Shown: positions 15,868 through 64,000 of the stretch, one piece after another
How positions within the stretch are numbered: position 1 is the first letter of the stretch
Layout of the letters: each line of letters opens with the position of its first letter
Assembly: GCF_003334765.1 (NCBI RefSeq)
Contig: NZ_QOWT01000008.1
Length of the DNA stretch: 64,000 bases
Reading direction: 5' to 3' (one strand)
Source: Escherichia coli
Lineage (GTDB): Bacteria; Pseudomonadota; Gammaproteobacteria; Enterobacterales; Enterobacteriaceae
Notes under the pieces: model-generated
Seen by the model: only the letters and a program-made list of their open reading frames with translations
Told to the model about the DNA's origin: nothing
The model's database searches: none
Translations under genes and position numbers: made by a program

Positions 15868-15883
15868 TTTTTTTAACTCTCAC

Positions 15884-16158: not shown

Positions 16159-16494
16159 ATGGATAAAGAACGCATCATTCAGGAATTTGTGCCCGGCAAA
16201 CAGGTCACACTGGCGCATCTCATCGCGCATCCCGGTGAGGAACTGGCGAAGAAAATCGGCGTTCCGGATGCGGGCGCAATTGGCATTATGACGCTAACTC
16301 CCGGCGAAACGGCGATGATCGCCGGTGATTTAGCGCTGAAAGCCGCTGATGTGCATATCGGTTTTCTCGACCGATTCAGCGGTGCATTGGTGATTTATGG
16401 CTCGGTGGGCGCAGTAGAAGAAGCGTTATCACAAACCGTCAGCGGTTTAGGTCGCTTATTAAATTATACGCTTTGTGAAATGACCAAAAGTTAA
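16159..16494 (+). CDS. eutS: microcompartment shell protein EutS
   Basis: Internal ATG 16159 gives 111 aa starting [10 protein letters not shown]; ORF-track start is an extension. Confidence 0.93.
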
Positions 16495-16506
16495 TACGAG
16501 GCATTC

Positions 16507-16986
16507 ATGAAACGAATTGCGTTTGTGGGTAGCGTCGGGGCAGGAAAAACAACGTTATTTAATGCGTTGCAGGGGAATTATACCCTCGCCAGAAAAACAC
16601 AGGCCGTGGAATTTAATGATAAGGGCGATATTGATACGCCGGGTGAATATTTTAACCATCCCCGCTGGTATCACGCCTTAATTACCACGCTACAGGATGT
16701 AGACATGCTGATCTATGTCCATGGCGCAAATGACCCGGAAAGTCGGTTGCCTGCCGGGTTGCTGGATATTGGCGTCAGCAAACGGCAAATCGCCGTCATC
16801 AGTAAAACGGACATGCCAGATGCTGACGTCGCCGCAACGCGAAAGTTATTGCTTGAGACGGGCTTCGAAGAGCCGATTTTCGAGCTAAACAGCCACGACC
16901 CGCAAAGCGTGCAGCAACTGGTGGATTATCTGGCATCTCTCACCAAACAGGAGGAAGCAGGTGAAAAAACTCATCACAGCGAATGA
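16507..16986 (+). CDS. eutP: EutP, P-loop GTPase/ATPase-like protein
   Basis: 159 aa; Walker A GSVGAGKTTL. Confidence 0.93.
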   Translation: MKRIAFVGSVGAGKTTLFNALQGNYTLARKTQAVEFNDKGDIDTPGEYFNHPRWYHALITTLQDVDMLIYVHGANDPESRLPAGLLDIGVSKRQIAVISKTDMPDADVAATRKLLLETGFEEPIFELNSHDPQSVQQLVDYLASLTKQEEAGEKTHHSE

Positions 16987-17662
16987 TATTCGTGAAGCAC
17001 ACGCGCGCGGCGAACAGGCAATGTCCGTGGTTCTGCGCGCCAGCATTATTACCCCGGAAGCCCGTGAAGTGGCGGATCTACTGGGTTTTACCATCACCGA
17101 ATGTGATGAATCGATCCCGGTAACGGCGTCCGTGCCCGCCAGCGTGCCAGCCGACAAAACCGAAAGCCAGCGCATCCGCGAAACCATCATTGCCCAGCTG
17201 CCGGAAGGCCAGTTTACCGAAAGCCTGGTCGCACAGCTGATGGAAAAAGTGATGAAGGAAAAACAGTCGCTGGAGCAGGGCGCAATGCAGCCGAGCTTCA
17301 AATCGGTGACCGGCAAAGGCGGCATCAAAGTGATTGATGGCAGTAGCGTCAAGTTTGGTCGTTTCGACGGCGCAGAGCCGCATTGCGTGGGCTTGACTGA
17401 TCTTGTGACCGGAGACGACGGCAGCAGCATGGCCGCCGGTTTTATGCAGTGGGAGAACGCATTCTTCCCGTGGACCCTGAACTACGACGAAATCGACATG
17501 GTGCTGGAAGGGGAGCTGCATGTTCGCCACGAAGGCCAAACCATGATCGCCAAAGCAGGCGACGTGATGTTTATCCCGAAAGGCTCCAGCATCGAATTTG
17601 GTACGACATCCAGCGTGAAATTCCTGTATGTCGCCTGGCCGGCTAACTGGCAATCCCTATGA
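16961..17662 (+). CDS. eutQ: EutQ, cupin-fold protein
   Basis: 233 aa; overlaps eutP by 26 nt. Confidence 0.92.
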   Translation: MKKLITANDIREAHARGEQAMSVVLRASIITPEAREVADLLGFTITECDESIPVTASVPASVPADKTESQRIRETIIAQLPEGQFTESLVAQLMEKVMKEKQSLEQGAMQPSFKSVTGKGGIKVIDGSSVKFGRFDGAEPHCVGLTDLVTGDDGSSMAAGFMQWENAFFPWTLNYDEIDMVLEGELHVRHEGQTMIAKAGDVMFIPKGSSIEFGTTSSVKFLYVAWPANWQSL

Positions 17663-18462
17663 AAGATTTCATCACCGAAGCATGGCTAAGAGCGAACCAT
17701 ACGCTCAGCGAAGGCGCAGAGATCCATCTCCCTGCGGACAGTCGCCTGACGCCCTCTGCCCGGGAGTTGCTGGAAAGCCGCCATCTGCGCATCAAGTTTA
17801 TTGACGAGCAGGGCCGCCTGTTTGTTGACGATGAACAGCAGCAGCCGCAGCCCGTTCATGGGCTGACCAGTAGCGATGAACATCCGCAGGCGTGCTGCGA
17901 ACTGTGTCGCCAGCCGGTGGCAAAAAAGCCGGATACGCTGACTCACCTGTCGGCGGAAAAAATGGTCGCCAAAAGCGATCCGCGTCTGGGTTTTCGCGCG
18001 GTTCTCGACAGCACCATTGCGCTGGCAGTGTGGCTGCAAATTGAACTGGCGGAACCGTGGCAGCCGTGGCTGGCGGATATCCGTTCGCGTCTTGGCAACA
18101 TTATGCGCGCCGATGCGCTGGGGGAACCGCTGGGCTGCCAGGCGATTGTCGGGCTTTCTGACGAAGATCTGCATCGGCTTTCTCATCAGCCGCTGCGCTA
18201 TCTCGACCACGATCATCTGGTGCCGGAAGCCAGCCACGGGCGCGATGCTGCGTTGCTCAATCTGCTACGCACCAAAGTGCGGGAAACCGAAACCGTAGCG
18301 GCGCAGGTCTTTATCACCCGCAGCTTTGAAGTATTACGCCCGGACATTTTGCAGGCGCTGAACCGCCTTTCGAGCACGGTCTACGTGATGATGATCCTGA
18401 GCGTAACGAAGCAGCCGCTAACGGTGAAGCAGATCCAACAACGACTGGGGGAAACGCAATGA
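17659..18462 (+). CDS. eutT: EutT, cob(I)alamin adenosyltransferase
   Basis: 267 aa; 4-nt overlap with eutQ. Confidence 0.92.
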
Positions 18463-19475
18463 TTATTGAACGTTGTCGTGAACTGGCGTTGCGAGCGCCC
18501 GCCAGAGTGGTTTTTCCGGATGCGTTAGACCAACGTGTGCTGAAAGCCGCGCAATATTTACATCAACAAGGTCTGGCAACGCCCATTCTGGTCGCCAATC
18601 CGTTTGAACTTCGTCAGTTTGCGCTCAGTCACGGCGTGGCGATGGACGGGCTACAGGTGATTGATCCGCATGGCAACCTCGCAATGCGGGAAGAATTTGC
18701 TCATCGCTGGCTGGCCCGCGCGGGCGAAAAAACGCCGCCGGATGCGCTGGAAAAACTTACCGACCCTCTGATGTTCGCCGCAGCAATGGTCAGCGCCGGT
18801 AAAGCGGATGTCTGTATCGCGGGCAACCTCTCTTCCACGGCAAATGTGCTGCGTGCCGGATTACGCATTATCGGCTTGCAGCCAGGCTGTAAAACGCTCT
18901 CTTCCATTTTCCTGATGTTGCCACAGTACAGCGGCCCGGCGTTGGGCTTTGCCGATTGCAGCGTGGTGCCACAGCCGACGGCGGCGCAGCTGGCGGATAT
19001 CGCGCTTGCCAGTGCCGAAACCTGGCGCGCCATCACCGGAGAAGAGCCGCGCGTGGCGATGCTGTCGTTTTCCAGCAATGGTAGCGCCCGTCACCCCTGT
19101 GTTGCTAACGTCCAGCAGGCGACAGAAATCGTCCGTGAGCGCGCACCAAAGCTGGTGGTGGATGGCGAGTTACAGTTTGACGCCGCCTTCGTGCCGGAAG
19201 TGGCGGCGCAAAAAGCGCCTGCCAGCCCGCTACAGGGCAAGGCCAATGTGATGGTTTTTCCGTCGCTGGAAGCCGGAAATATTGGTTACAAAATCGCACA
19301 ACGACTCGGCGGATATCGTGCCGTCGGGCCACTGATACAAGGACTTGCCGCGCCGATGCACGATCTCTCTCGTGGTTGTAGCGTGCAGGAAATTATCGAG
19401 CTGGCGCTGGTGGCAGCTGTGCCGCGTCAGACAGAAGTGAACCGCGAAAGCAGTTTACAAACACTGGTTGAATGA
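18459..19475 (+). CDS. eutD: EutD, phosphotransacetylase
   Basis: 338 aa PTA-family protein; 4-nt overlap with eutT. Confidence 0.93.
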
Positions 19476-19513
19476 ACGGTCCCGTTCTGGACCCTGATAA
19501 AGAGGAAAGCACA

Positions 19514-19807
19514 ATGGAAGCATTAGGAATGATCGAAACCCGGGGCCTGGTTGCACTGATTGAGGCTTCTGACGCGATGGTGAAAGCTGCGCGCGTCAAG
19601 CTGGTTGGTGTTAAGCAGATTGGCGGCGGCCTGTGTACTGCCATGGTTCGTGGTGATGTTGCAGCCTGTAAAGCCGCGACCGATGCAGGTGCCGCAGCGG
19701 CACAGCGTATCGGCGAGCTGGTATCTGTACACGTTATCCCGCGTCCGCACGGCGACCTGGAAGAAGTCTTCCCGATCGGCCTGAAAGGCGATAGCAGCAA
19801 CCTGTAA
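19514..19807 (+). CDS. eutM: EutM, BMC-domain hexameric shell protein
   Basis: Internal ATG 19514 after AGAGGAAAG gives 97 aa starting [15 protein letters not shown]. Confidence 0.93.
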
Positions 19808-19913
19808 TCACCCTGTGTGACGTCGATTCGGGCGTCACGCTCTCTCCTTTTTCATTTTACCTTCTGCGGAGGGTAGGGGGAGCTTTTACCTGAAATACGC
19901 CACGGAGGCGGGT

Positions 19914-20201
19914 ATGAAACTGGCAGTCGTCACTGGACAAATTGTTTGTACCGTACGCCATCACGGACTGGCGCATGACAAATTGCTGATGGTGGAAATG
20001 ATTGATCCACAAGGTAATCCTGACGGGCAATGCGCCGTCGCCATCGACAATATTGGCGCGGGAACCGGGGAGTGGGTGTTACTGGTGAGTGGCAGTTCCG
20101 CCCGCCAGGCGCATAAAAGCGAAACGTCACCGGTCGATCTGTGCGTGATTGGCATTGTCGATGAGGTGGTGTCTGGCGGTCAGGTAATTTTCCACAAATA
20201 A
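19914..20201 (+). CDS. eutN: EutN, pentameric vertex shell protein
   Basis: 95 aa; GGAGG RBS upstream. Confidence 0.93.
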   Translation: MKLAVVTGQIVCTVRHHGLAHDKLLMVEMIDPQGNPDGQCAVAIDNIGAGTGEWVLLVSGSSARQAHKSETSPVDLCVIGIVDEVVSGGQVIFHK

Positions 20202-20212
20202 GGCAGAACATC

Positions 20213-21616
20213 ATGAATCAACAGGATATTGAACAGGTGGTGAAAGCGGTACTGCTGAAAATGCAAAGCAGTGACACGCCGTCCGCCGCCGTTCATGAGA
20301 TGGGCGTTTTCGCGTCCCTGGATGACGCCGTTGCGGCAGCCAAAGTCGCCCAGCAAGGGTTAAAAAGCGTGGCAATGCGCCAGTTAGCCATTGCTGCCAT
20401 TCGTGAAGCAGGCGAAAAACACGCCAGAGATTTAGCGGAACTTGCCGTCAGTGAAACCGGCATGGGGCGCGTTGAAGATAAATTTGCAAAAAACGTCGCT
20501 CAGGCGCGCGGCACACCAGGCGTTGAGTGCCTCTCTCCGCAAGTGCTGACTGGCGACAACGGCCTGACCCTAATTGAAAACGCACCCTGGGGCGTGGTGG
20601 CTTCGGTGACGCCTTCCACTAACCCGGCGGCAACCGTAATTAACAACGCCATCAGCCTGATTGCCGCGGGCAACAGCGTCATTTTTGCCCCGCATCCGGC
20701 GGCGAAAAAAGTCTCCCAGCGGGCGATTACGCTGCTCAACCAGGCGATTGTTGCCGCAGGTGGGCCGGAAAACTTACTGGTTACTGTGGCAAATCCGGAT
20801 ATCGAAACCGCGCAACGCTTGTTCAAGTTTCCGGGTATCGGCCTGCTGGTGGTAACCGGCGGCGAAGCGGTAGTAGAAGCGGCGCGTAAACACACCAATA
20901 AACGTCTGATTGCCGCAGGCGCTGGCAACCCGCCGGTAGTGGTGGATGAAACCGCCGACCTCGCCCGTGCCGCTCAGTCCATCGTCAAAGGCGCTTCTTT
21001 CGATAACAACATCATTTGTGCCGACGAAAAGGTACTGATTGTTGTTGATAGCGTAGCCGATGAACTGATGCGTCTGATGGAAGGCCAGCACGCGGTGAAA
21101 CTGACCGCAGAACAGGCGCAGCAGCTGCAACCGGTGTTGCTGAAAAATATCGACGAGCGCGGAAAAGGCACCGTCAGCCGTGACTGGGTTGGTCGCGACG
21201 CAGGCAAAATCGCGGCGGCAATCGGCCTTAAAGTTCCGCAAGAAACGCGCCTGCTGTTTGTGGAAACCACCGCAGAACATCCGTTTGCCGTGACTGAACT
21301 GATGATGCCGGTGTTGCCCGTCGTGCGCGTCGCCAACGTGGCGGATGCCATTGCGCTAGCGGTGAAACTGGAAGGCGGTTGCCACCACACGGCGGCAATG
21401 CACTCGCGCAACATCGAAAACATGAACCAGATGGCGAATGCTATTGATACCAGCATTTTCGTTAAGAACGGACCGTGCATTGCCGGGCTGGGGCTGGGCG
21501 GGGAAGGCTGGACCACCATGACCATCACCACGCCAACCGGTGAAGGGGTAACCAGCGCGCGTACGTTTGTCCGTCTGCGTCGCTGTGTATTAGTCGATGC
21601 GTTTCGCATTGTTTAA
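20213..21616 (+). CDS. eutE: EutE, CoA-acylating acetaldehyde dehydrogenase
   Basis: 467 aa aldehyde dehydrogenase family. Confidence 0.95.
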   Translation: MNQQDIEQVVKAVLLKMQSSDTPSAAVHEMGVFASLDDAVAAAKVAQQGLKSVAMRQLAIAAIREAGEKHARDLAELAVSETGMGRVEDKFAKNVAQARGTPGVECLSPQVLTGDNGLTLIENAPWGVVASVTPSTNPAATVINNAISLIAAGNSVIFAPHPAAKKVSQRAITLLNQAIVAAGGPENLLVTVANPDIETAQRLFKFPGIGLLVVTGGEAVVEAARKHTNKRLIAAGAGNPPVVVDETADLARAAQSIVKGASFDNNIICADEKVLIVVDSVADELMRLMEGQHAVKLTAEQAQQLQPVLLKNIDERGKGTVSRDWVGRDAGKIAAAIGLKVPQETRLLFVETTAEHPFAVTELMMPVLPVVRVANVADAIALAVKLEGGCHHTAAMHSRNIENMNQMANAIDTSIFVKNGPCIAGLGLGGEGWTTMTITTPTGEGVTSARTFVRLRRCVLVDAFRIV

Positions 21617-21626
21617 GGAGTAACAG

Positions 21627-22463
21627 ATGGCGCACGACGAACAATGGCTCACCCCACGTCTGCAAACGGCGGCAACGCTGTGTAACCAGACGCCCGCCGC
21701 GACGGAATCTCCGCTGTGGCTGGGGGTGGATCTGGGCACCTGCGATGTGGTGTCGATGGTTGTCGACCGCGACGGTCAGCCAGTGGCGGTATGCCTCGAC
21801 TGGGCCGATGTGGTTCGCGACGGCATCGTCTGGGATTTCTTCGGCGCTGTCACCATTGTTCGTCGCCATCTCGACACGCTCGAGCAGCAATTCGGTCGTC
21901 GTTTTAGCCATGCGGCGACTTCATTTCCTCCAGGTACGGACCCGCGTATTTCCATCAACGTGCTGGAATCTGCCGGACTGGAAGTGAGCCATGTGCTGGA
22001 TGAGCCAACCGCAGTTGCGGATCTGCTGCAACTGGACAACGCCGGTGTAGTGGATATCGGCGGCGGCACTACCGGCATTGCCATCGTGAAAAAGGGCAAG
22101 GTGACGTACTCGGCGGATGAAGCCACCGGCGGACATCACATCTCTCTGACTCTCGCCGGAAATCGCCGTATTTCGCTGGAAGAGGCGGAGCAGTACAAGC
22201 GCGGTCACGGTGAAGAGATTTGGCCTGCGGTGAAACCGGTGTACGAAAAAATGGCGGACATTGTCGCCCGGCATATTGAAGGGCAGGGCATTACTGATTT
22301 ATGGCTGGCGGGCGGCTCTTGTATGCAACCGGGCGTGGCGGAACTGTTTCGCAAACAATTCCCGGCGTTACAGGTGCATTTACCGCAGCACAGTTTGTTT
22401 ATGACCCCGCTGGCGATCGCCAGTAGTGGGCGAGAGAAAGCGGAGGGGCTATATGCAAAATGA
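21627..22463 (+). CDS. eutJ: EutJ, actin/Hsp70-fold chaperone-like ATPase
   Basis: 278 aa; DIGGGTTGIAIV motif. Confidence 0.92.
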   Translation: MAHDEQWLTPRLQTAATLCNQTPAATESPLWLGVDLGTCDVVSMVVDRDGQPVAVCLDWADVVRDGIVWDFFGAVTIVRRHLDTLEQQFGRRFSHAATSFPPGTDPRISINVLESAGLEVSHVLDEPTAVADLLQLDNAGVVDIGGGTTGIAIVKKGKVTYSADEATGGHHISLTLAGNRRISLEEAEQYKRGHGEEIWPAVKPVYEKMADIVARHIEGQGITDLWLAGGSCMQPGVAELFRKQFPALQVHLPQHSLFMTPLAIASSGREKAEGLYAK

Positions 22464-23640
22464 ATTGCAGACCGCGCTCTTTCAGGCGTTCGATACCCTG
22501 AATCTGCAACGGGTAAAAACATTTAGCGTTCCACCGGTGACGCTTTGCGGTCCGGGCTCGGTGAGCAGTTGCGGACAGCAAGCGCAAACGCGTGGGCTGA
22601 AACATCTGTTCGTGATGGCAGACAGCTTTTTGCATCAGGCAGGGATGACCGCCGGGCTGACGCGTAGCCTGACCGTTAAAGGTATCGCCATGACGCTCTG
22701 GCCATGTCCGGTGGGCGAACCGTGCATTACCGACGTGTGTGCAGCCGTGGCGCAGTTGCGTGAGTCAGGCTGTGATGGGGTGATCGCGTTTGGCGGCGGC
22801 TCGGTGCTGGATGCGGCGAAAGCCGTGACGTTGCTGGTGACGAACCCGGATAGCACGCTGGCAGAGATGTCAGAAACCAGCGTTCTGCAACCGCGCTTGC
22901 CGCTGATTGCCATTCCAACTACCGCCGGAACCGGCTCTGAAACCACCAATGTAACGGTGATTATCGACGCGGTGAGCGGGCGCAAGCAGGTGTTAGCCCA
23001 TGCCTCGCTGATGCCGGATGTGGCGATCCTCGACGCCGCATTGACCGAAGGTGTGCCGTCGCATGTCACGGCGATGACCGGCATTGATGCGTTAACCCAT
23101 GCCATTGAAGCATACAGCGCCCTGAACGCTACACCGTTTACCGACAGTCTGGCGATTGGTGCCATTGCGATGATTGGCAAATCGCTGCCGAAAGCGGTGG
23201 GCTACGGTCACGACCTTGCCGCGCGCGAGAGCATGTTGCTGGCTTCATGTATGGCGGGAATGGCGTTTTCCAGTGCGGGTCTTGGGTTGTGCCACGCGAT
23301 GGCGCATCAGCCGGGCGCGGCGCTGCATATTCCGCACGGTCTCGCGAACGCCATGTTGCTGCCAACGGTGATGGAATTTAACCGGATGGTTTGTCGTGAA
23401 CGCTTTAGTCAGATTGGTCGGGCACTGCGAACTAAAAAATCCGACGATCGTGACGCTATTAACGCGGTAAGTGAGCTGATTGCGGAAGTTGGGATTGGTA
23501 AACGACTGGGCGATGTTGGTGCGACATCTGCGCATTACGGCGCATGGGCGCAGGCCGCGCTGGAAGATATTTGTCTGCGCAGTAACCCGCGTACCGCCAG
23601 CCTGGAGCAGATTGTCGGCCTGTACGCAGCGGCGCAATAA
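22453..23640 (+). CDS. eutG: EutG, iron-containing alcohol dehydrogenase
   Basis: Internal ATG 22453 after GGAGGGG gives 395 aa starting MQNELQTALFQ; ORF-track start 22426 is GTG. Confidence 0.9.
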   Translation: MQNELQTALFQAFDTLNLQRVKTFSVPPVTLCGPGSVSSCGQQAQTRGLKHLFVMADSFLHQAGMTAGLTRSLTVKGIAMTLWPCPVGEPCITDVCAAVAQLRESGCDGVIAFGGGSVLDAAKAVTLLVTNPDSTLAEMSETSVLQPRLPLIAIPTTAGTGSETTNVTVIIDAVSGRKQVLAHASLMPDVAILDAALTEGVPSHVTAMTGIDALTHAIEAYSALNATPFTDSLAIGAIAMIGKSLPKAVGYGHDLAARESMLLASCMAGMAFSSAGLGLCHAMAHQPGAALHIPHGLANAMLLPTVMEFNRMVCRERFSQIGRALRTKKSDDRDAINAVSELIAEVGIGKRLGDVGATSAHYGAWAQAALEDICLRSNPRTASLEQIVGLYAAAQ

Positions 23641-23642
23641 AT

Positions 23643-23826
<184 letters not shown>

Positions 23827-23856
23827 ATAAATAACAACTAACAGGGAGTAAAGGCG

Positions 23857-25083
23857 ATGGGAATTAACGAAATCATCATGTACATCATGATGTTCTTTAT
23901 GCTGATAGCTGCCGTAGACAGGATCCTGTCGCAGTTCGGCGGTTCTGCTCGTTTCCTCGGTAAGTTCGGTAAAAGTATCGAAGGATCAGGCGGTCAGTTC
24001 GAAGAAGGCTTTATGGCAATGGGCGCACTGGGCCTGGCGATGGTCGGTATGACCGCGCTGGCACCGGTACTGGCTCACGTTCTCGGGCCGGTAATTATTC
24101 CGGTTTACGAAATGCTCGGCGCTAACCCATCGATGTTCGCCGGAACACTGCTGGCGTGCGATATGGGCGGCTTCTTCCTCGCCAAAGAGCTGGCGGGCGG
24201 CGACGTAGCCGCGTGGCTATACTCTGGGTTAATTCTCGGGTCGATGATGGGGCCAACGATTGTGTTTTCCATTCCGGTGGCGCTCGGCATTATCGAACCT
24301 TCTGACCGTCGTTATCTGGCGCTCGGCGTGCTGGCGGGCATTGTGACCATTCCGATTGGTTGTATCGCTGGTGGTCTGGTTGCTATGTACTCCGGTGTGC
24401 AGATCAACGGCCAGCCGGTGGAATTCACTTTCGCCCTGATCCTGATGAACATGATCCCGGTGATCATTGTTGCGATTCTGGTGGCGCTGGGGCTGAAATT
24501 CATCCCGGAAAAAATGATCAACGGCTTCCAGATCTTCGCCAAATTCCTCGTTGCATTGATCACCCTCGGTCTTGCCGCTGCGGTAGTGAAATTCCTGCTT
24601 GGCTGGGAACTGATCCCCGGTCTGGATCCTATCTTTATGGCCCCTGGCGATAAACCCGGTGAGGTGATGCGCGCCATTGAAGTTATCGGTTCTATCTCCT
24701 GCGTTCTGTTAGGGGCGTATCCGATGGTGCTGCTGCTGACTCGCTGGTTTGAAAAACCGCTGATGAGCGTCGGTAAAGTACTGAATATGAACAACATCGC
24801 GGCAGCCGGCATGGTGGCAACGCTTGCCAACAACATCCCGATGTTCGGCATGATGAAGCAGATGGATACCCGCGGCAAAGTCATCAACTGCGCCTTCGCC
24901 GTTTCCGCTGCTTTCGCCCTGGGCGACCACTTAGGCTTCGCCGCTGCCAACATGAACGCCATGATCTTCCCGATGATTGTCGGCAAGTTGATCGGCGGCG
25001 TAACGGCGATTGGCGTGGCGATGATGCTGGTGCCAAAAGAAGACGCGACCGCGACTAAAACCGAAGCGGAGGCACAATCGTGA
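23857..25083 (+). CDS. eutH: EutH, ethanolamine permease
   Basis: 408 aa polytopic membrane protein. Confidence 0.95.
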   Translation: MGINEIIMYIMMFFMLIAAVDRILSQFGGSARFLGKFGKSIEGSGGQFEEGFMAMGALGLAMVGMTALAPVLAHVLGPVIIPVYEMLGANPSMFAGTLLACDMGGFFLAKELAGGDVAAWLYSGLILGSMMGPTIVFSIPVALGIIEPSDRRYLALGVLAGIVTIPIGCIAGGLVAMYSGVQINGQPVEFTFALILMNMIPVIIVAILVALGLKFIPEKMINGFQIFAKFLVALITLGLAAAVVKFLLGWELIPGLDPIFMAPGDKPGEVMRAIEVIGSISCVLLGAYPMVLLLTRWFEKPLMSVGKVLNMNNIAAAGMVATLANNIPMFGMMKQMDTRGKVINCAFAVSAAFALGDHLGFAAANMNAMIFPMIVGKLIGGVTAIGVAMMLVPKEDATATKTEAEAQS

Positions 25084-26483
25084 ACACTCGCCAGCTATTG
25101 AGCGTCGGTATCGATATCGGCACCACCACCACCCAGGTGATTTTCTCCCGGCTGGAGCTGGTTAACCGTGCGGCGGTGTCGCAGGTGCCGCGCTACGAAT
25201 TCATTAAACGCGAAATTAGCTGGCAAAGTCCGGTGTTCTTTACCCCTGTCGATAAACAGGGCGGTTTAAAAGAAGCGGAACTGAAAACCTTAATACTCGA
25301 GCAATATCATGCTGCGGGTATTGAGCCGGAAAGCGTTGATTCTGGTGCCATCATCATCACCGGTGAAAGCGCGAAAACCCGCAATGCTCGCCCGGCGGTG
25401 ATGGCGCTCTCTCAGTCGCTGGGCGATTTTGTCGTTGCCAGCGCCGGGCCGCACCTCGAATCCGTGATCGCCGGTCACGGAGCCGGGGCACAAACCCTTT
25501 CTGAACAACGGCTGTGTCGGGTACTGAATATCGACATCGGCGGTGGCACCGCGAACTACGCCCTGTTCGATGCCGGAAAAATCAGCGGCACTGCCTGCCT
25601 CAACGTCGGTGGTCGCCTGCTGGAAACCGACAGCCACGGGCGCGTGGTTTACGCTCATAAACCGGGGCAGATGATTGTGGATGAGTGCTTCGGTGCAGGC
25701 ACCGACGCCCGTTCGCTGACCGGCGCGCAGCTGGTGCAGGTGACCCGGCGGATGGCAGAACTGATTGTCGAAGTGATTGACGGAACGCTCTCACCGCTCG
25801 CGCAGGCATTGATGCAAACCGGTTTGCTGCCCGCAGGTGTTACGCCCGAAATCATTACGCTTTCTGGCGGCGTGGGCGAATGTTATCGCCACCAGCCCGC
25901 CGACCCGTTCTGTTTTGCCGATATTGGCCCGCTGCTGGCAACTGCGCTGCATGACCATCCGCGCCTGCGTGAGATGAACGTACAGTTTCCGGCGCAAACC
26001 GTGCGCGCCACGGTGATTGGCGCGGGCGCGCATGCCCTTTCGCTCTCTGGCAGCACAATCTGGCTTGAGGGCGTACAACTGCCGCTGCGCAATTTGCCGG
26101 TGGCGATCCCGATTGATGAAACGGATCTGGTGGGGGCCTGGCAACAGGCGCTGATTCAGCTGGATCTTGATCCCAAAACTGACGCGTACGTGCTGGCGCT
26201 TCCCGCCTCGCTGCCTGTGCGTTACGCCGCGGTACTGACGGTCATCAACGCGTTGGTCGATTTCGTCGCGCGTTTTCCGAATCCGCATCCCCTGCTGGTG
26301 GTGGCCGGGCAGGACTTTGGTAAAGCTCTGGGCATGTTGTTGCGCCCACAGCTACAACAACTCCCGTTGGCAGTCATTGACGAAGTGATTGTCCGCGCGG
26401 GGGACTATATCGACATTGGTACGCCTCTTTTTGGCGGATCGGTTGTGCCGGTGACGGTGAAATCACTCGCATTTCCTTCCTGA
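25080..26483 (+). CDS. eutA: EutA, ethanolamine ammonia-lyase reactivase
   Basis: 467 aa; 4-nt overlap with eutH. Confidence 0.95.
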   Translation: MNTRQLLSVGIDIGTTTTQVIFSRLELVNRAAVSQVPRYEFIKREISWQSPVFFTPVDKQGGLKEAELKTLILEQYHAAGIEPESVDSGAIIITGESAKTRNARPAVMALSQSLGDFVVASAGPHLESVIAGHGAGAQTLSEQRLCRVLNIDIGGGTANYALFDAGKISGTACLNVGGRLLETDSHGRVVYAHKPGQMIVDECFGAGTDARSLTGAQLVQVTRRMAELIVEVIDGTLSPLAQALMQTGLLPAGVTPEIITLSGGVGECYRHQPADPFCFADIGPLLATALHDHPRLREMNVQFPAQTVRATVIGAGAHALSLSGSTIWLEGVQLPLRNLPVAIPIDETDLVGAWQQALIQLDLDPKTDAYVLALPASLPVRYAAVLTVINALVDFVARFPNPHPLLVVAGQDFGKALGMLLRPQLQQLPLAVIDEVIVRAGDYIDIGTPLFGGSVVPVTVKSLAFPS

Positions 26484-26494
26484 GGGAACGACTT

Positions 26495-27856
26495 ATGAAA
26501 CTAAAGACCACATTGTTCGGCAATGTATATCAGTTTAAGGATGTAAAAGAGGTGCTGGCTAAAGCCAACGAACTGCGTTCGGGGGATGTGCTGGCGGGCG
26601 TCGCAGCGGCAAGCTCACAGGAGCGCGTGGCGGCAAAGCAGGTGTTGTCGGAAATGACCGTAGCGGACATCCGCAATAATCCGGTGATTGCCTATGAAGA
26701 TGACTGCGTGACGCGGCTGATTCAGGACGATGTTAACGAAACGGCCTACAACCAGATTAAAAACTGGAGCATCAGCGAACTGCGTGAGTATGTGCTGAGC
26801 GATGAAACCAGCGTGGACGACATTGCCTTTACCCGCAAAGGGCTGACCTCGGAAGTGGTCGCGGCGGTAGCGAAGATTTGCTCCAACGCGGACCTGATCT
26901 ACGGCGCGAAGAAAATGCCGGTAATCAAAAAGGCCAATACCACCATCGGTATTCCGGGCACCTTTAGCGCCCGTTTGCAGCCAAATGACACCCGTGACGA
27001 CGTGCAAAGTATCGCCGCGCAAATCTACGAAGGGCTTTCCTTCGGGGTGGGCGATGCGGTGATCGGCGTTAACCCGGTGACTGACGACGTGGAAAACTTA
27101 AGCCGCGTGTTGGATACCATCTATGGCGTGATCGACAAATTCAACATCCCAACTCAGGGCTGTGTACTGGCGCACGTCACCACCCAGATCGAAGCGATCC
27201 GTCGTGGCGCACCGGGCGGGCTGATTTTCCAGAGTATCTGTGGCAGCGAAAAAGGGCTGAAAGAGTTTGGCGTGGAGCTGGCGATGCTCGACGAAGCGCG
27301 CGCAGTGGGCGCGGAGTTCAACCGTATCGCCGGGGAAAACTGCCTCTACTTCGAAACCGGACAAGGCTCTGCGCTATCCGCTGGCGCTAACTTCGGCGCA
27401 GACCAGGTAACGATGGAAGCACGTAACTACGGGCTGGCGCGTCATTACGATCCGTTTATCGTCAACACCGTGGTCGGCTTTATTGGGCCGGAGTATCTCT
27501 ACAACGACCGCCAGATTATCCGTGCTGGCTTAGAAGATCACTTTATGGGCAAGCTGAGCGGCATCTCTATGGGCTGTGACTGCTGTTATACCAACCACGC
27601 TGACGCTGACCAGAACCTCAACGAAAACCTGATGATCCTGCTCGCCACCGCAGGCTGCAACTACATCATGGGGATGCCGCTGGGTGATGACATCATGCTC
27701 AACTACCAGACCACCGCATTCCACGATACCGCCACTGTGCGTCAGTTACTCAACCTGCGCCCGTCACCGGAGTTTGAACGCTGGCTGGAAAGCATGGGCA
27801 TTATGGCAAACGGTCGCCTGACCAAACGGGCGGGCGATCCGTCACTGTTCTTCTGA
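26495..27856 (+). CDS. eutB: EutB, ethanolamine ammonia-lyase large subunit
   Basis: 453 aa; GAGGGAA RBS; only 11 nt after eutA. Confidence 0.97.
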   Translation: MKLKTTLFGNVYQFKDVKEVLAKANELRSGDVLAGVAAASSQERVAAKQVLSEMTVADIRNNPVIAYEDDCVTRLIQDDVNETAYNQIKNWSISELREYVLSDETSVDDIAFTRKGLTSEVVAAVAKICSNADLIYGAKKMPVIKKANTTIGIPGTFSARLQPNDTRDDVQSIAAQIYEGLSFGVGDAVIGVNPVTDDVENLSRVLDTIYGVIDKFNIPTQGCVLAHVTTQIEAIRRGAPGGLIFQSICGSEKGLKEFGVELAMLDEARAVGAEFNRIAGENCLYFETGQGSALSAGANFGADQVTMEARNYGLARHYDPFIVNTVVGFIGPEYLYNDRQIIRAGLEDHFMGKLSGISMGCDCCYTNHADADQNLNENLMILLATAGCNYIMGMPLGDDIMLNYQTTAFHDTATVRQLLNLRPSPEFERWLESMGIMANGRLTKRAGDPSLFF

Positions 27857-27876
27857 TGACGCGGAGATAACATATC

Positions 27877-28764
27877 ATGGATCAAAAACAGATTGAAGAA
27901 ATTGTACGCAGCGTGATGGCGTCAATGGGACAAGCGGCCCCCGCGCCGTCAGAAGCAAAGTGCGCCACCACCAACTGTGCGGCACCGGTGACCTCGGAAA
28001 GCTGTGCGCTGGATTTAGGTTCCGCTGAAGCAAAAGCGTGGATTGGTGTTGAAAATCCGCATCGCGCAGACGTATTAACAGAACTGCGCCGCAGCACCGT
28101 GGCCCGCGTTTGTACCGGTCGTGCCGGTCCGCGTCCACGTACGCAGGCGCTGCTGCGTTTCCTGGCCGATCACTCTCGTTCGAAAGATACCGTACTGAAA
28201 GAAGTGCCGGAAGAGTGGGTGAAAGCGCAGGGCTTGCTGGAAGTACGCTCTGAAATTAGCGACAAAAATCTCTACCTGACTCGCCCGGATATGGGCCGCC
28301 GCCTGTGTGCAGAAGCTGTTGAAGCGCTGAAAGCGCAGTGTGTTGCCAATCCGGACGTACAGGTCGTTATTTCTGATGGCCTGTCAACTGATGCGATCAC
28401 CGTGAACTACGAAGAGATCCTGCCACCGCTGATGGCGGGCCTGAAACAGGCCGGGCTGAAAGTCGGTACACCATTCTTTGTTCGTTATGGTCGCGTGAAG
28501 ATTGAAGATCAGATCGGTGAGATCCTCGGCGCGAAAGTAGTGATCCTGCTGGTGGGCGAACGTCCGGGGTTGGGTCAGTCAGAAAGCCTCTCCTGCTACG
28601 CCGTTTACTCGCCGCGTATGGCGACCACCGTTGAGGCCGATCGCACCTGTATCTCTAACATTCACCAGGGCGGCACGCCGCCGGTTGAAGCCGCAGCCGT
28701 CATTGTGGATTTGGCGAAACGTATGCTGGAGCAGAAAGCATCCGGCATCAACATGACCCGATAA
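27877..28764 (+). CDS. eutC: EutC, ethanolamine ammonia-lyase small subunit
   Basis: 295 aa. Confidence 0.96.
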
Positions 28765-28773
28765 GGAGGCATC

Positions 28774-29433
28774 ATGCCAGCTTTAGATTTGATTCGACCG
28801 TCTGTCACCGCTATGCGGGTGATTGCCTCCGTTAACGCCGATTTTGCGCGTGAACTGAAATTGCCGCCGCATATTCGTAGCCTCGGTCTGATTTCTGCCG
28901 ACTCCGATGACGTCACCTACATTGCCGCTGATGAAGCGACCAAGCAGGCGATGGTGGAAGTGGTGTATGGCCGCTCGCTATATGCGGGCGCTGCACACGG
29001 CCCGTCACCGACTGCCGGTGAAGTGCTGATTATGCTTGGTGGGCCAAACCCGGCGGAAGTGCGTGCAGGTCTGGATGCGATGATTGCGCATATTGAAAAT
29101 GGCGCAGCTTTCCAGTGGGCTAATGACGCGCAAGATACGGCATTCCTGGCACATGTAGTTTCGCGTACCGGTTCTTATCTCTCATCAACCGCCGGGATCA
29201 CGCTTGGCGATCCGATGGCGTATCTGGTGGCACCGCCGCTGGAAGCGACCTATGGCATTGATGCAGCCCTGAAGTCTGCCGACGTACAGCTGGCGACCTA
29301 TGTCCCGCCACCGTCTGAAACCAACTACTCGGCAGCATTTTTAACCGGTAGCCAGGCAGCGTGTAAAGCAGCCTGTAACGCCTTTACCGATGCAGTGCTG
29401 GAAATCGCGCGTAATCCAATCCAGCGTGCGTAA
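28774..29433 (+). CDS. eutL: EutL, tandem-BMC-domain shell protein
   Basis: 219 aa. Confidence 0.95.
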
Positions 29434-29445
29434 CGGAGGTTGCCG

Positions 29446-29946
29446 ATGATCAATGCACTGGGATTGCTGGAAGTGGACGGCATGGTCGCCGCGATAGATG
29501 CAGCGGATGCCATGCTCAAAGCAGCTAACGTTCGTCTGCTCAGTCACGAAGTGCTTGACCCTGGTCGCTTAACGCTGGTGGTGGAAGGCGATCTGGCGGC
29601 GTGTCGTGCGGCGCTGGACGCAGGTTGTGCTGCCGCGATGCGTACCGGGCGTGTCATCAGCCGCAAGGAGATCGGTCGGCCAGACGATGACACCCAGTGG
29701 CTGGTTACTGGCTTTAACCGCCAGCCGAAGCAACCCGTAAGGGAACCCGACGCGCCAGTTATCGTCGCGGAATCTGCTGACGAGTTGTTGGCGCTGTTAA
29801 CATCAGTACGTCAGGGAATGACGGCAGGAGAAGTGGCTGCCCACTTTGGCTGGCCGCTGGAAAAAGCCAGAAATGCGCTCGAACAGCTCTTTTCTGCCGG
29901 GACGTTACGTAAACGCAGTAGTCGTTATCGTCTCAAGCCCCATTAA
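29446..29946 (+). CDS. eutK: EutK, BMC shell protein with C-terminal helix-turn-helix-like extension
   Basis: ATG 29446 after GGAGG gives 166 aa starting MINALGLLEV; ORF-track start 29440 is TTG. Confidence 0.9.
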   Translation: MINALGLLEVDGMVAAIDAADAMLKAANVRLLSHEVLDPGRLTLVVEGDLAACRAALDAGCAAAMRTGRVISRKEIGRPDDDTQWLVTGFNRQPKQPVREPDAPVIVAESADELLALLTSVRQGMTAGEVAAHFGWPLEKARNALEQLFSAGTLRKRSSRYRLKPH

Positions 29947-29991
29947 CCTGTCGGAGGTGCCGGGTGTCCTACAACACCCGGCATTAACATC

Positions 29992-31044
29992 ATGAAAAAG
30001 ACCCGTACAGCCAATTTGCACCATCTTTATCATGAACCCTTACCCGAAAACCTGAAGCTCACGCCGAAGGTCGAAGTGGATAATGTTCATCAACGACAGA
30101 CAACGGATGTCTATGAACATGCTTTAACGATTACCGCCTGGCAGCAGATTTACGATCAGCTGCATCCGGGCAAGTTTCATGGTGAATTTACGGAAATTCT
30201 ACTCGATGATATTCAGGTTTTTCGTGAATACACCGGTCTGGCGCTGCGTCAGTCGTGCCTGGTCTGGCCGAACTCGTTCTGGTTTGGCATTCCGGCGACG
30301 CGCGGTGAGCAGGGATTTATCGGTTCGCAATGTCTGGGAAGCGCGGAAATCGCCACCCGCCCTGGTGGCACTGAATTTGAACTGAGCACGCCGGATGATT
30401 ACACGATCCTGGGCGTGGTGCTTTCTGAAGATGTCATCACCCGGCAGGCTAACTTTTTGCATAACCCGGATCGGGTATTACATATGTTGCGTAACCAGTC
30501 GGCGCTGGAAGTGAAAGAGCAGCATAAAGCCGCGCTGTGGGGCTTTGTCCAACAGGCGCTGGCGACGTTTTGCGAGAATCCGGAAAATCTCCATCAGCCT
30601 GCAGTGCGAAAAGTGCTGGGGGATAATTTGCTAATGGCGATGGGGGCCATGCTGGAAGAAGCGCAACCAATGGTGACGGCGGAAAGCATCAGTCATCAGA
30701 GTTACCGTCGATTGCTTTCCCGCGCCCGTGAATATGTGCTGGAAAACATGTCCGAACCGGTGACGGTGCTGGATTTGTGTAATCAACTGCATGTCAGCCG
30801 CCGCACGCTACAAAACGCGTTTCACGCTATTTTAGGCATTGGCCCGAACGCGTGGCTGAAACGCATTCGCCTGAACGCCGTACGCCGCGAACTGATAAGT
30901 CCGTGGTCGCAAAGTATGACGGTAAAAGACGCCGCCATGCAGTGGGGATTCTGGCATCTGGGGCAATTTGCCACGGATTACCAGCAGCTGTTTTCCGAGA
31001 AGCCGTCACTGACGCTGCATCAGCGGATGCGGGAGTGGGGGTGA
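29992..31044 (+). CDS. eutR: EutR, AraC-family activator of the eut operon
   Basis: 350 aa; C-terminal AraC-type HTH. Confidence 0.93.
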
Positions 31045-46541: not shown

Positions 46542-46639
<98 letters not shown>

Positions 46640-63646: not shown

Positions 63647-63707
63647 ATCGCAGATAGCAAAAAAGCGCCTTTAGGGCGCTTTTTTACATTGGTGGGTCGT
63701 GCAGGAT
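63647..63707. repeat. 61-bp direct repeat, copy 1: terminator hairpin plus 3'-terminal 18 nt of tRNA-Lys (copy 2 at 63803-63863 runs into intact lysV)
   Basis: ATCGCAGATAG(C/T)AAAAAAGCGCCTTTAGGGCGCTTTTTTACATTGGTGGGTCGTGCAGGAT occurs twice, 156-bp period, one mismatch. Confidence 0.8.
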
Positions 63708-63845
63708 GACTCGCTTCGCTCGCCCTTCGGGCCGTCGCCGCGAGCGGCTCCGTTGTTTCGCTGCGCTCAACTCAAACCTGCTGCAGGTTCGAATCTTTGA
63801 GTATCGCAGATAGTAAAAAAGCGCCTTTAGGGCGCTTTTTTACAT

Positions 63846-63921
63846 TGGTGGGTCGTGCAGGATTCGAACCTGCGACCAATTGATTAAAAGTCAACTGCTC
63901 TACCAACTGAGCTAACGACCC
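63846..63921 (-). tRNA. lysV: tRNA-Lys (anticodon UUU)
   Basis: Reverse complement gives a 76-nt tRNA with anticodon loop CTTTTAA and CCA end. Confidence 0.95.
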
Positions 63922-63925
63922 GAAG

Positions 63926-64000
63926 TGGTGGGTGATGACGGGATCGAACCGCCGACCCCCTCCTTGTAAGGGAGGTGCTCTCCCAGCTGAGCTAATCACC
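63926..64000 (-). tRNA. valY: tRNA-Val (anticodon UAC), lacking only its 5'-terminal nucleotide at the window edge
   Basis: Reverse complement gives GGTGATTAGCTCAGCTGGGAGAGCACCTCCCTTACAAGGAGG...CACCCACCA; which val gene of the cluster is assigned by position. Confidence 0.9.

Follow-up and report, generated by a model that had tools for sequence, protein, structure and literature searches.

The window, a stretch of 64,000 nt from Escherichia coli, carries an eut operon at 16159-31044, in which 17 genes lie on one strand in the order eutSPQTDMNEJGHABCLKR. Positions 13000-37000 were 100% identical to several complete genomes, including that of E. coli strain H3, and gene coordinates were transferred from the PGAP annotation of H3 (locus coordinate + 99 = window coordinate). 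That annotation lists eutS, P, Q, T, pta (eutD), M, N, E, J, G, H, A, B, C, L, K and R with zero pseudogene flags. Since the two sequences are identical, all 17 eut genes of the window were taken to be intact, which agreed with the open reading frames (ORFs) and with an earlier note on this DNA that had described a complete 17-gene operon.

The operon is on the plus strand and starts with eutS (16159-16494, placed by the H3 annotation), encoding a microcompartment shell protein. It continues with eutP (16507-16986), eutQ (16961-17662), eutT (17659-18462), eutD (pta; 18459-19475), eutM (19514-19807), eutN (19914-20201), eutE (20213-21616), eutJ (21627-22463) and eutG (22453-23640), and ends with eutL (28774-29433), eutK (29446-29946) and eutR (29992-31044), each identified by an ORF together with the H3 annotation. 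Between these two groups, the ethanolamine permease gene eutH (23857-25083; NCBIfam NF011665, 873.6 bits; also annotated in H3) is followed by eutA (25080-26483), which encodes the 467-aa ethanolamine ammonia-lyase reactivase (NF007991, 1066.5 bits, cut-off 799) and ends with a TGA stop codon at 26481-26483. The 453-aa large subunit of ethanolamine ammonia-lyase is encoded by eutB (26495-27856; NF011649, 664.7 bits, cut-off 554), and eutC (27877-28764) was supported by its ORF, NCBIfam and the H3 annotation. The signature enzyme EutBC and its reactivase EutA thus all scored above the curated NCBIfam cut-offs, and the ORFs flanking the eutA/eutB pair were those of EutH and EutC by NCBIfam.

Two 88-nt direct repeats, 97% identical and spaced 100 nt apart, were observed in the eutG-eutH intergenic region (23639-23826), and one of them overlaps an Rfam match to naRNA4 (REP/BIME-type) at 23695-23776. 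Elsewhere in the window, Rfam models identified the ES036/CssrF sRNA (46563-46605), an RtT element (63690-63815), a complete tRNA gene on the minus strand (63849-63921) and a further tRNA gene truncated by the end of the window (within 63690-64000). By their position in MG1655, the tRNAs at the window end are lysV and valY.

At the eutA-eutB junction, positions 26470-26500 read CATTTCCTTCCTGA GGGAACGACTT ATGAAA. The last eutA codons (TTC CCT TCC TGA) are followed by an 11-nt spacer, GGGAACGACTT (26484-26494, plus strand), and by the first eutB codons (ATG AAA). The sequence, the ORFs and the NCBIfam matches confirmed that eutA stops at 26483, that eutB starts at 26495 and that nothing interrupts the junction. 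A candidate Shine-Dalgarno sequence of eutB, GAGG, is located at 26482-26485 and overlaps the eutA stop codon; the spacer is therefore little beyond the end of the ribosome-binding site, and the statement that only such a site separates the two genes was essentially right. Neither promoter-like sites nor plus-strand terminators were detected by a consensus scan of 25900-27000.

In MG1655, the 'cryptic prophage CPZ-55' is annotated at 2558691-2565480 (6,790 bp), between eutB (b2441) and eutA (b2451). It comprises intZ and the yffL-yffS genes (b2442-b2450), nine in total and all oriented against the eut genes. The distance from the eutA stop codon to the eutB ATG is 6,801 nt in MG1655 versus 11 nt in the window; the two loci have the same eutA stop, spacer and eutB start, and the window is without the 6,790-bp element. 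The location of CPZ-55 at this junction, as given in the earlier note, was borne out by both the annotation and the junction alignment.

Alignment of the junctions demonstrated that MG1655 matches the window through the TGA on the eutA side and is divergent beyond it, and that on the eutB side it matches from CTTCCTGA on; the window thus corresponds to the left flank, one copy of the core and the right flank of the occupied genome. CTTCCTGA was the only stretch common to both CPZ-55 ends in K-12, and it is the same 8 bp as TCAGGAAG, described as the 8-bp duplication of CPZ-55 in a study that found the element in 8% of genomes (PMC6379469). From the junction alignments of MG1655 and strain E203449, the unoccupied attB core CTTCCTGA (8 bp, plus strand) was placed at 26476-26483, so that it takes in the final eutA bases with the stop codon. 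Gapped megablast extended the similarity imperfectly over 26461-26483 (plus strand), where the bacterial AATCACTCGCATTTCCTTCCTGA (23 nt) aligned with the prophage-end AATCATCGATTCTTCCTGA (19 nt) with four 1-nt gaps. The proposal that a residual att core might lie in the spacer itself (26484-26494) was rejected: K-12 has a single copy of the spacer, which remains attached to eutB, and the repeated sequence is CTTCCTGA directly upstream. In K-12, CPZ-55 would have recombined inside this 8-bp core (window 26476-26483). The insertion altered neither eutA with its stop codon nor the 11-nt spacer and eutB, and it placed 6.8 kb of oppositely oriented DNA between the two genes.

A second element at the same site was found in strain E203449, in which a 10.4-kb island (L006:11130-21499) with the same att core separates eutA from eutB. 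The integrase gene of this island shares ~87% DNA identity with K-12 intZ, and intZ adjoins eutB in both MG1655 and E203449. Both ends of the island show clear homology to the CPZ-55 ends and border the same core; its cargo consists of an HTH regulator, hypothetical genes, gadC, murI, a truncated decarboxylase gene and IS1. The same core, an intZ homologue and homologous ends combined with other cargo point to an attP/integrase system, and IntZ itself was identified as a tyrosine integrase by its match to phrog_1 (E = 1e-67). The junction is read, on this comparison of sequences, as the unoccupied attB for the integrase/attP system of small IntZ-type elements. From the two elements compared, we infer that integration would proceed by integrase-mediated site-specific recombination, not by transposition; the insertion of CPZ-55 has been worded as 'transposon-like' (PMC6379469). 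Another prophage was reported at the eutA-eutB site of a UPEC strain (PMC6652756).

Comparison of CPZ-55 with PHROGs yielded the integrase, a small-terminase-like YffO and otherwise weak matches, and CPZ-55 might be a satellite-like element, not a decayed full prophage. YffO (MG1655 L001:9112-9528, in CPZ-55) matched the phage small-terminase family phrog_1482 with E = 5.5e-13, and YffL weakly matched replication-initiation families. In the literature available for searching, no paper linked CPZ-55 to phage-inducible islands (PICI). With no such paper and with sparse PHROGs matches, the idea that CPZ-55 is a described phage-inducible island was dropped.

The contiguous junction was present in 4,964 of 5,426 complete E. 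coli genomes (91.5%), counted as those in which one BLAST place covered at least 80% of a 611-nt junction query, so that insertions shorter than ~800 bp, such as a 90-bp duplication in the AG100 record, were still scored as contiguous. Full-length CPZ-55 with both flanks was found in 213 of the 5,426, and a divergent intZ (80-95% identity) lay beside eutB in ~232 records. Outgroups were scanned with a degenerate EutB N-terminus pattern in one genome per species, which yielded 35 loci from Citrobacter, Klebsiella, Salmonella enterica subsp. arizonae, Yokenella, Pluralibacter, Intestinirhabdus, Pseudocitrobacter and several Escherichia. The eutA stop, an 11-nt spacer and the eutB ATG were found in 34 of them, the exception being Citrobacter koseri NCTC10786, in which no base of the last 60 nt or of the spacer differs from E. 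coli. The spacer was also 11 nt long in all eight further loci found via EutA (74-90% identity, including S. enterica subsp. enterica). Counted together, the 43 loci, mostly from other enterobacterial species, all had an empty site and a spacer of this length, C. koseri being excepted only when the distance was measured from stop to ATG. The spacer sequence was unchanged in S. enterica and throughout the 35 scan loci, and two distant loci had one change at -3. About 100 nt ahead of eutB in the C. koseri locus (L026), the eutA frame is apparently shifted, which may reflect a pseudogene or an error in sequencing.

Given this frequency in E. coli and the contiguous outgroups, the uninterrupted eutA-eutB junction is the common and ancestral state, and the window shows the ancestral, intact arrangement, as the earlier note had proposed. 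The empty CPZ-55 site as such was already known (PMC6379469, PMC11148124, PMC11334477).

Over the 64 kb, the window differed from MG1655 by 10 SNPs (2279, 13776, 16863, 16878, 26034, 33880, 35208, 40095, 41279 and 52109), one 1-nt indel at 15868, just past maeB, and the missing prophage, with ~99.98% identity in two collinear alignments. The description of the window as a non-K-12-like chromosome was thus overstated, and lineage could not be deduced from the junction as had been done. XL1-Blue, a K-12 strain, agrees with K-12 at each of the nine variant sites within the compared locus, yet its eutA and eutB are contiguous, as is also given in its genome paper (PMC11148124); one W3110 stock has been described as eut+, and BW25113 as interrupted (PMC11334477). 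The absence of CPZ-55 from XL1-Blue means that the element is not a reliable K-12 marker, and its presence or absence is a poor marker of lineage. The SNP at 26034 falls on a first codon position in eutA, consistent with the differing EutA protein accessions of the H3 and K-12 records.

These comparisons bear on two other accounts of the empty site. Had the window come from a laboratory strain derived from K-12 in which CPZ-55 had been excised precisely, it would resemble XL1-Blue, which has a contiguous junction and is K-12 at every covered variant site (PMC11148124), or the eut+ stock of W3110 (PMC11334477), and its 99.98% identity to MG1655 would follow. This origin is hardly credible, because the window does not carry the K-12 alleles at the 10 SNPs, including the one in eutA at 26034, and the indel, whereas XL1-Blue is K-12 at the nine sites covered. 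Moreover, 13000-37000 was 100% identical to three non-K-12 isolates of human or animal origin, such as H3 and HSP425, with genomes of 4.9-5.1 Mb; the 10 SNPs and this identity to wild isolates indicate that the window is not K-12. The second account, in which an ancestor of this strain carried a CPZ-55-type element that was later excised cleanly, is improbable, although not to the same degree. Excision would regenerate attB without a scar, judging from the MG1655 and E203449 junction alignments, and because site-specific excision restores attB exactly, the sequence of the window fits a never-occupied and a cleanly excised site alike; that no trace of an element was seen in the window was to be expected in either case. 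K-12 shows loss of CPZ-55 (XL1-Blue), no more than 10 SNPs per 64 kb separate the window from a carrier lineage, and 100%-identical CPZ-55 occurs also in strains not labelled K-12, such as PJ-T13 with its 4.9-Mb genome. Parsimony argues against such a loss, as the site is unoccupied in 91.5% of E. coli genomes and in essentially every outgroup locus, and CPZ-55 is present in only 213 of 5,426 genomes. We conclude that 16159-31044 is almost certainly the standard intact eut operon of a wild, non-K-12 E. coli, and that its eutA-eutB junction is the empty attB of IntZ-family elements, where CPZ-55 recombined at CTTCCTGA in K-12; none of the observations spoke against this.

The eut operon of the window is presumably functional, judging from its intactness and from experiments on other strains with an intact operon (PMC11334477, PMC7617246). 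In BW25113, eutS and eutR responded to ethanolamine, eutB did not, and microcompartments were absent (PMC7617246); the prophage blocks eutB induction and microcompartment formation in MG1655 and BW25113 (PMC7617246, PMC11334477), and the CPZ-55 insertion has been removed scarlessly to rebuild an intact operon (PMC11334477). The window thus comes from a strain whose eut operon, in contrast to that of MG1655 or BW25113, is presumably functional, a point of practical value only.

The junction was further distinguished by nucleotide conservation. Thirty-five loci were mapped onto the window, and the 31 non-Escherichia loci were scored in 45-nt windows. A near-invariant block at 26403-26595 (plus strand), defined by cross-genus identity (0.99-1.00) and third codon positions, covers the last ~27 eutA codons, the spacer and the first ~33 eutB codons. 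Identity in 26406-26540 was 0.97-1.00 in the 31 loci, the maximum of the operon (median 0.84), and the 30 nt upstream of the eutB ATG were identical in 31 of 31; among the four Escherichia loci, E. whittamii was the sole exception, with one base different. In the last ~27 eutA codons, third-codon-position identity was 0.98-0.99, the top of 729 windows (operon median 0.61), and in the first 20 eutB codons it was 0.92, a value partly constrained by the search pattern. By this test, conservation of the block exceeds what the encoded proteins require. Loci found independently via EutA repeated this pattern, and S. enterica, one of them, had 2 differences between -92 and +100. The GC content of the block is 48%, compared to 57-60% in its flanks.

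Raised conservation was observed at other eut gene boundaries as well. The eutB 3' end and eutC start (27785-27936) were second most conserved (identity 0.976-0.978, third-position identity 0.89-0.93), and the starts of eutM and eutE also displayed raised synonymous conservation. In the record of the K-12 strain AG100 (NZ_LN832404.1, L002:3223-3402), CPZ-55 is absent, and the 90 bp of window positions 26406-26495 are perfectly duplicated in tandem, for which the annotation gives a 24-aa 'EutA' fragment; the limits of the duplication nearly match the upstream half of the conserved block, and an assembly artefact is possible.

Rather than selection on function, gene conversion or a recent horizontal exchange associated with the integrative elements could also account for the invariance of the block, given that the att core lies inside the block and that IntZ-family elements occupy the site in ~8% of E. 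coli genomes. Exchange of this kind would hardly produce the pattern found. The block has the same sharp boundaries (~26403 and ~26595) in all genera, including Klebsiella, Citrobacter, Salmonella, Yokenella, Pluralibacter and Intestinirhabdus, with normally diverging flanks, and the elements hold only ~19 nt that resemble the bacterial sequence; these two observations make gene conversion unlikely. In addition, locus L048, whose EutA is 79% identical, had zero differences from -92 to -1, and its eutB side has diverged at synonymous sites. Gene conversion is therefore considered very improbable.

Two hairpins were predicted on the plus strand by the RNAalifold consensus: H1 (26397-26470; 74 nt, 27 bp with many G.U pairs, -26.5 kcal/mol) and H2 (26472-26488; 7 bp, UUUCCUU-CCU-GAGGGAA). 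In the predicted H2, the eutB Shine-Dalgarno sequence and the eutA stop codon are paired with the last eutA codons, and the att core lies inside the hairpin. The stability of H1 corresponded to z = -2.0 on the plus strand, where 9 of 200 shuffled sequences folded equally well, and no equivalent fold was found on the minus strand; for H1 and H2 together z was -1.6. Covariation in H1 was marginal (two pairs with double changes; 5-8 of 500 shuffles reached the observed scores). In H2, all seven pairs were invariant in 29 sequences, hence covariation is silent either way. The minimum-energy fold was not kept in the two most divergent loci. A search of the block against Rfam gave no match at the gathering threshold and one chance-level match at E<=10, and no description of an mRNA element at the eutA-eutB junction was found in the literature.

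Two other candidates were rejected. A global RNA structure over 201 nt was no more stable than shuffles (z = +0.5), and an antisense ORF (26374-26523, 49 aa), considered as a source of the constraint, is interrupted by stops and has lost its internal Met in the two most divergent loci.

The most economical hypothesis is an unusually strong and extended constraint on the eutB translation-initiation region, possibly coupled to eutA termination, because other eut gene boundaries (eutB-eutC and the eutM and eutE starts) are raised too. A more specific model, which we put forward tentatively and with some doubt, is that ~190 nt at the junction, above all the last 92 nt of eutA and the spacer, may form a cis-acting mRNA element setting the expression of eutB (and eutC). 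Such an element could act via the G.U-rich hairpin H1; H2, by occluding the Shine-Dalgarno sequence, could be opened by ribosomes terminating on eutA, and the A/U-rich eutB start could contribute. Alternatively, the block could stabilise a processed eutBCLKR transcript from its 5' end.

The conserved block is the sole part of the locus with a possible new direction. If it exerts translational control, this would explain why the junction is an integration site across strains, and it would add a post-transcriptional layer to an operon relevant to gut colonisation and pathogenesis. If the mRNA element is real, IntZ-family elements would have come, in evolution, to use the least variable sequence of the operon as attB, and CPZ-55 in K-12 would sever eutB both from its promoter and from this mRNA element.

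The locus was compared with known systems. Salmonella enterica reportedly has a 17-gene eut operon, as described by Kofoid et al. in 1999. The S. enterica locus has the order eutG-eutH-eutA-eutB-eutC-eutL, as in the window, and an 11-nt eutA-eutB spacer of identical sequence; it differs by ordinary sequence divergence (EutA ~90% identical), with no structural difference, and the eut gene content matches that of LT2 (PMC11334477). The predicted H2 resembles translational-coupling hairpins at cistron junctions of polycistronic mRNAs (e.g. PMC4538824), in that the downstream Shine-Dalgarno sequence is paired with the last codons and the stop of the upstream gene. Hairpins of that kind need far less than the ~190 nt of the eut block, and the eut hairpins are predicted, with weak thermodynamic and covariation support. 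The insertion can be compared with integrative elements at the 3' end of conserved genes, such as e14 at icd (PMC6379469), which, like CPZ-55, has a tyrosine integrase beside one end and spares the host protein by inserting at the extreme 3' end of its gene. However, e14 duplicates a 163-bp pseudo-icd, whereas only 8 bp are identical and ~19-23 nt loosely similar at the CPZ-55 site, and CPZ-55 splits an operon, whereas e14 sits after a monocistronic gene.
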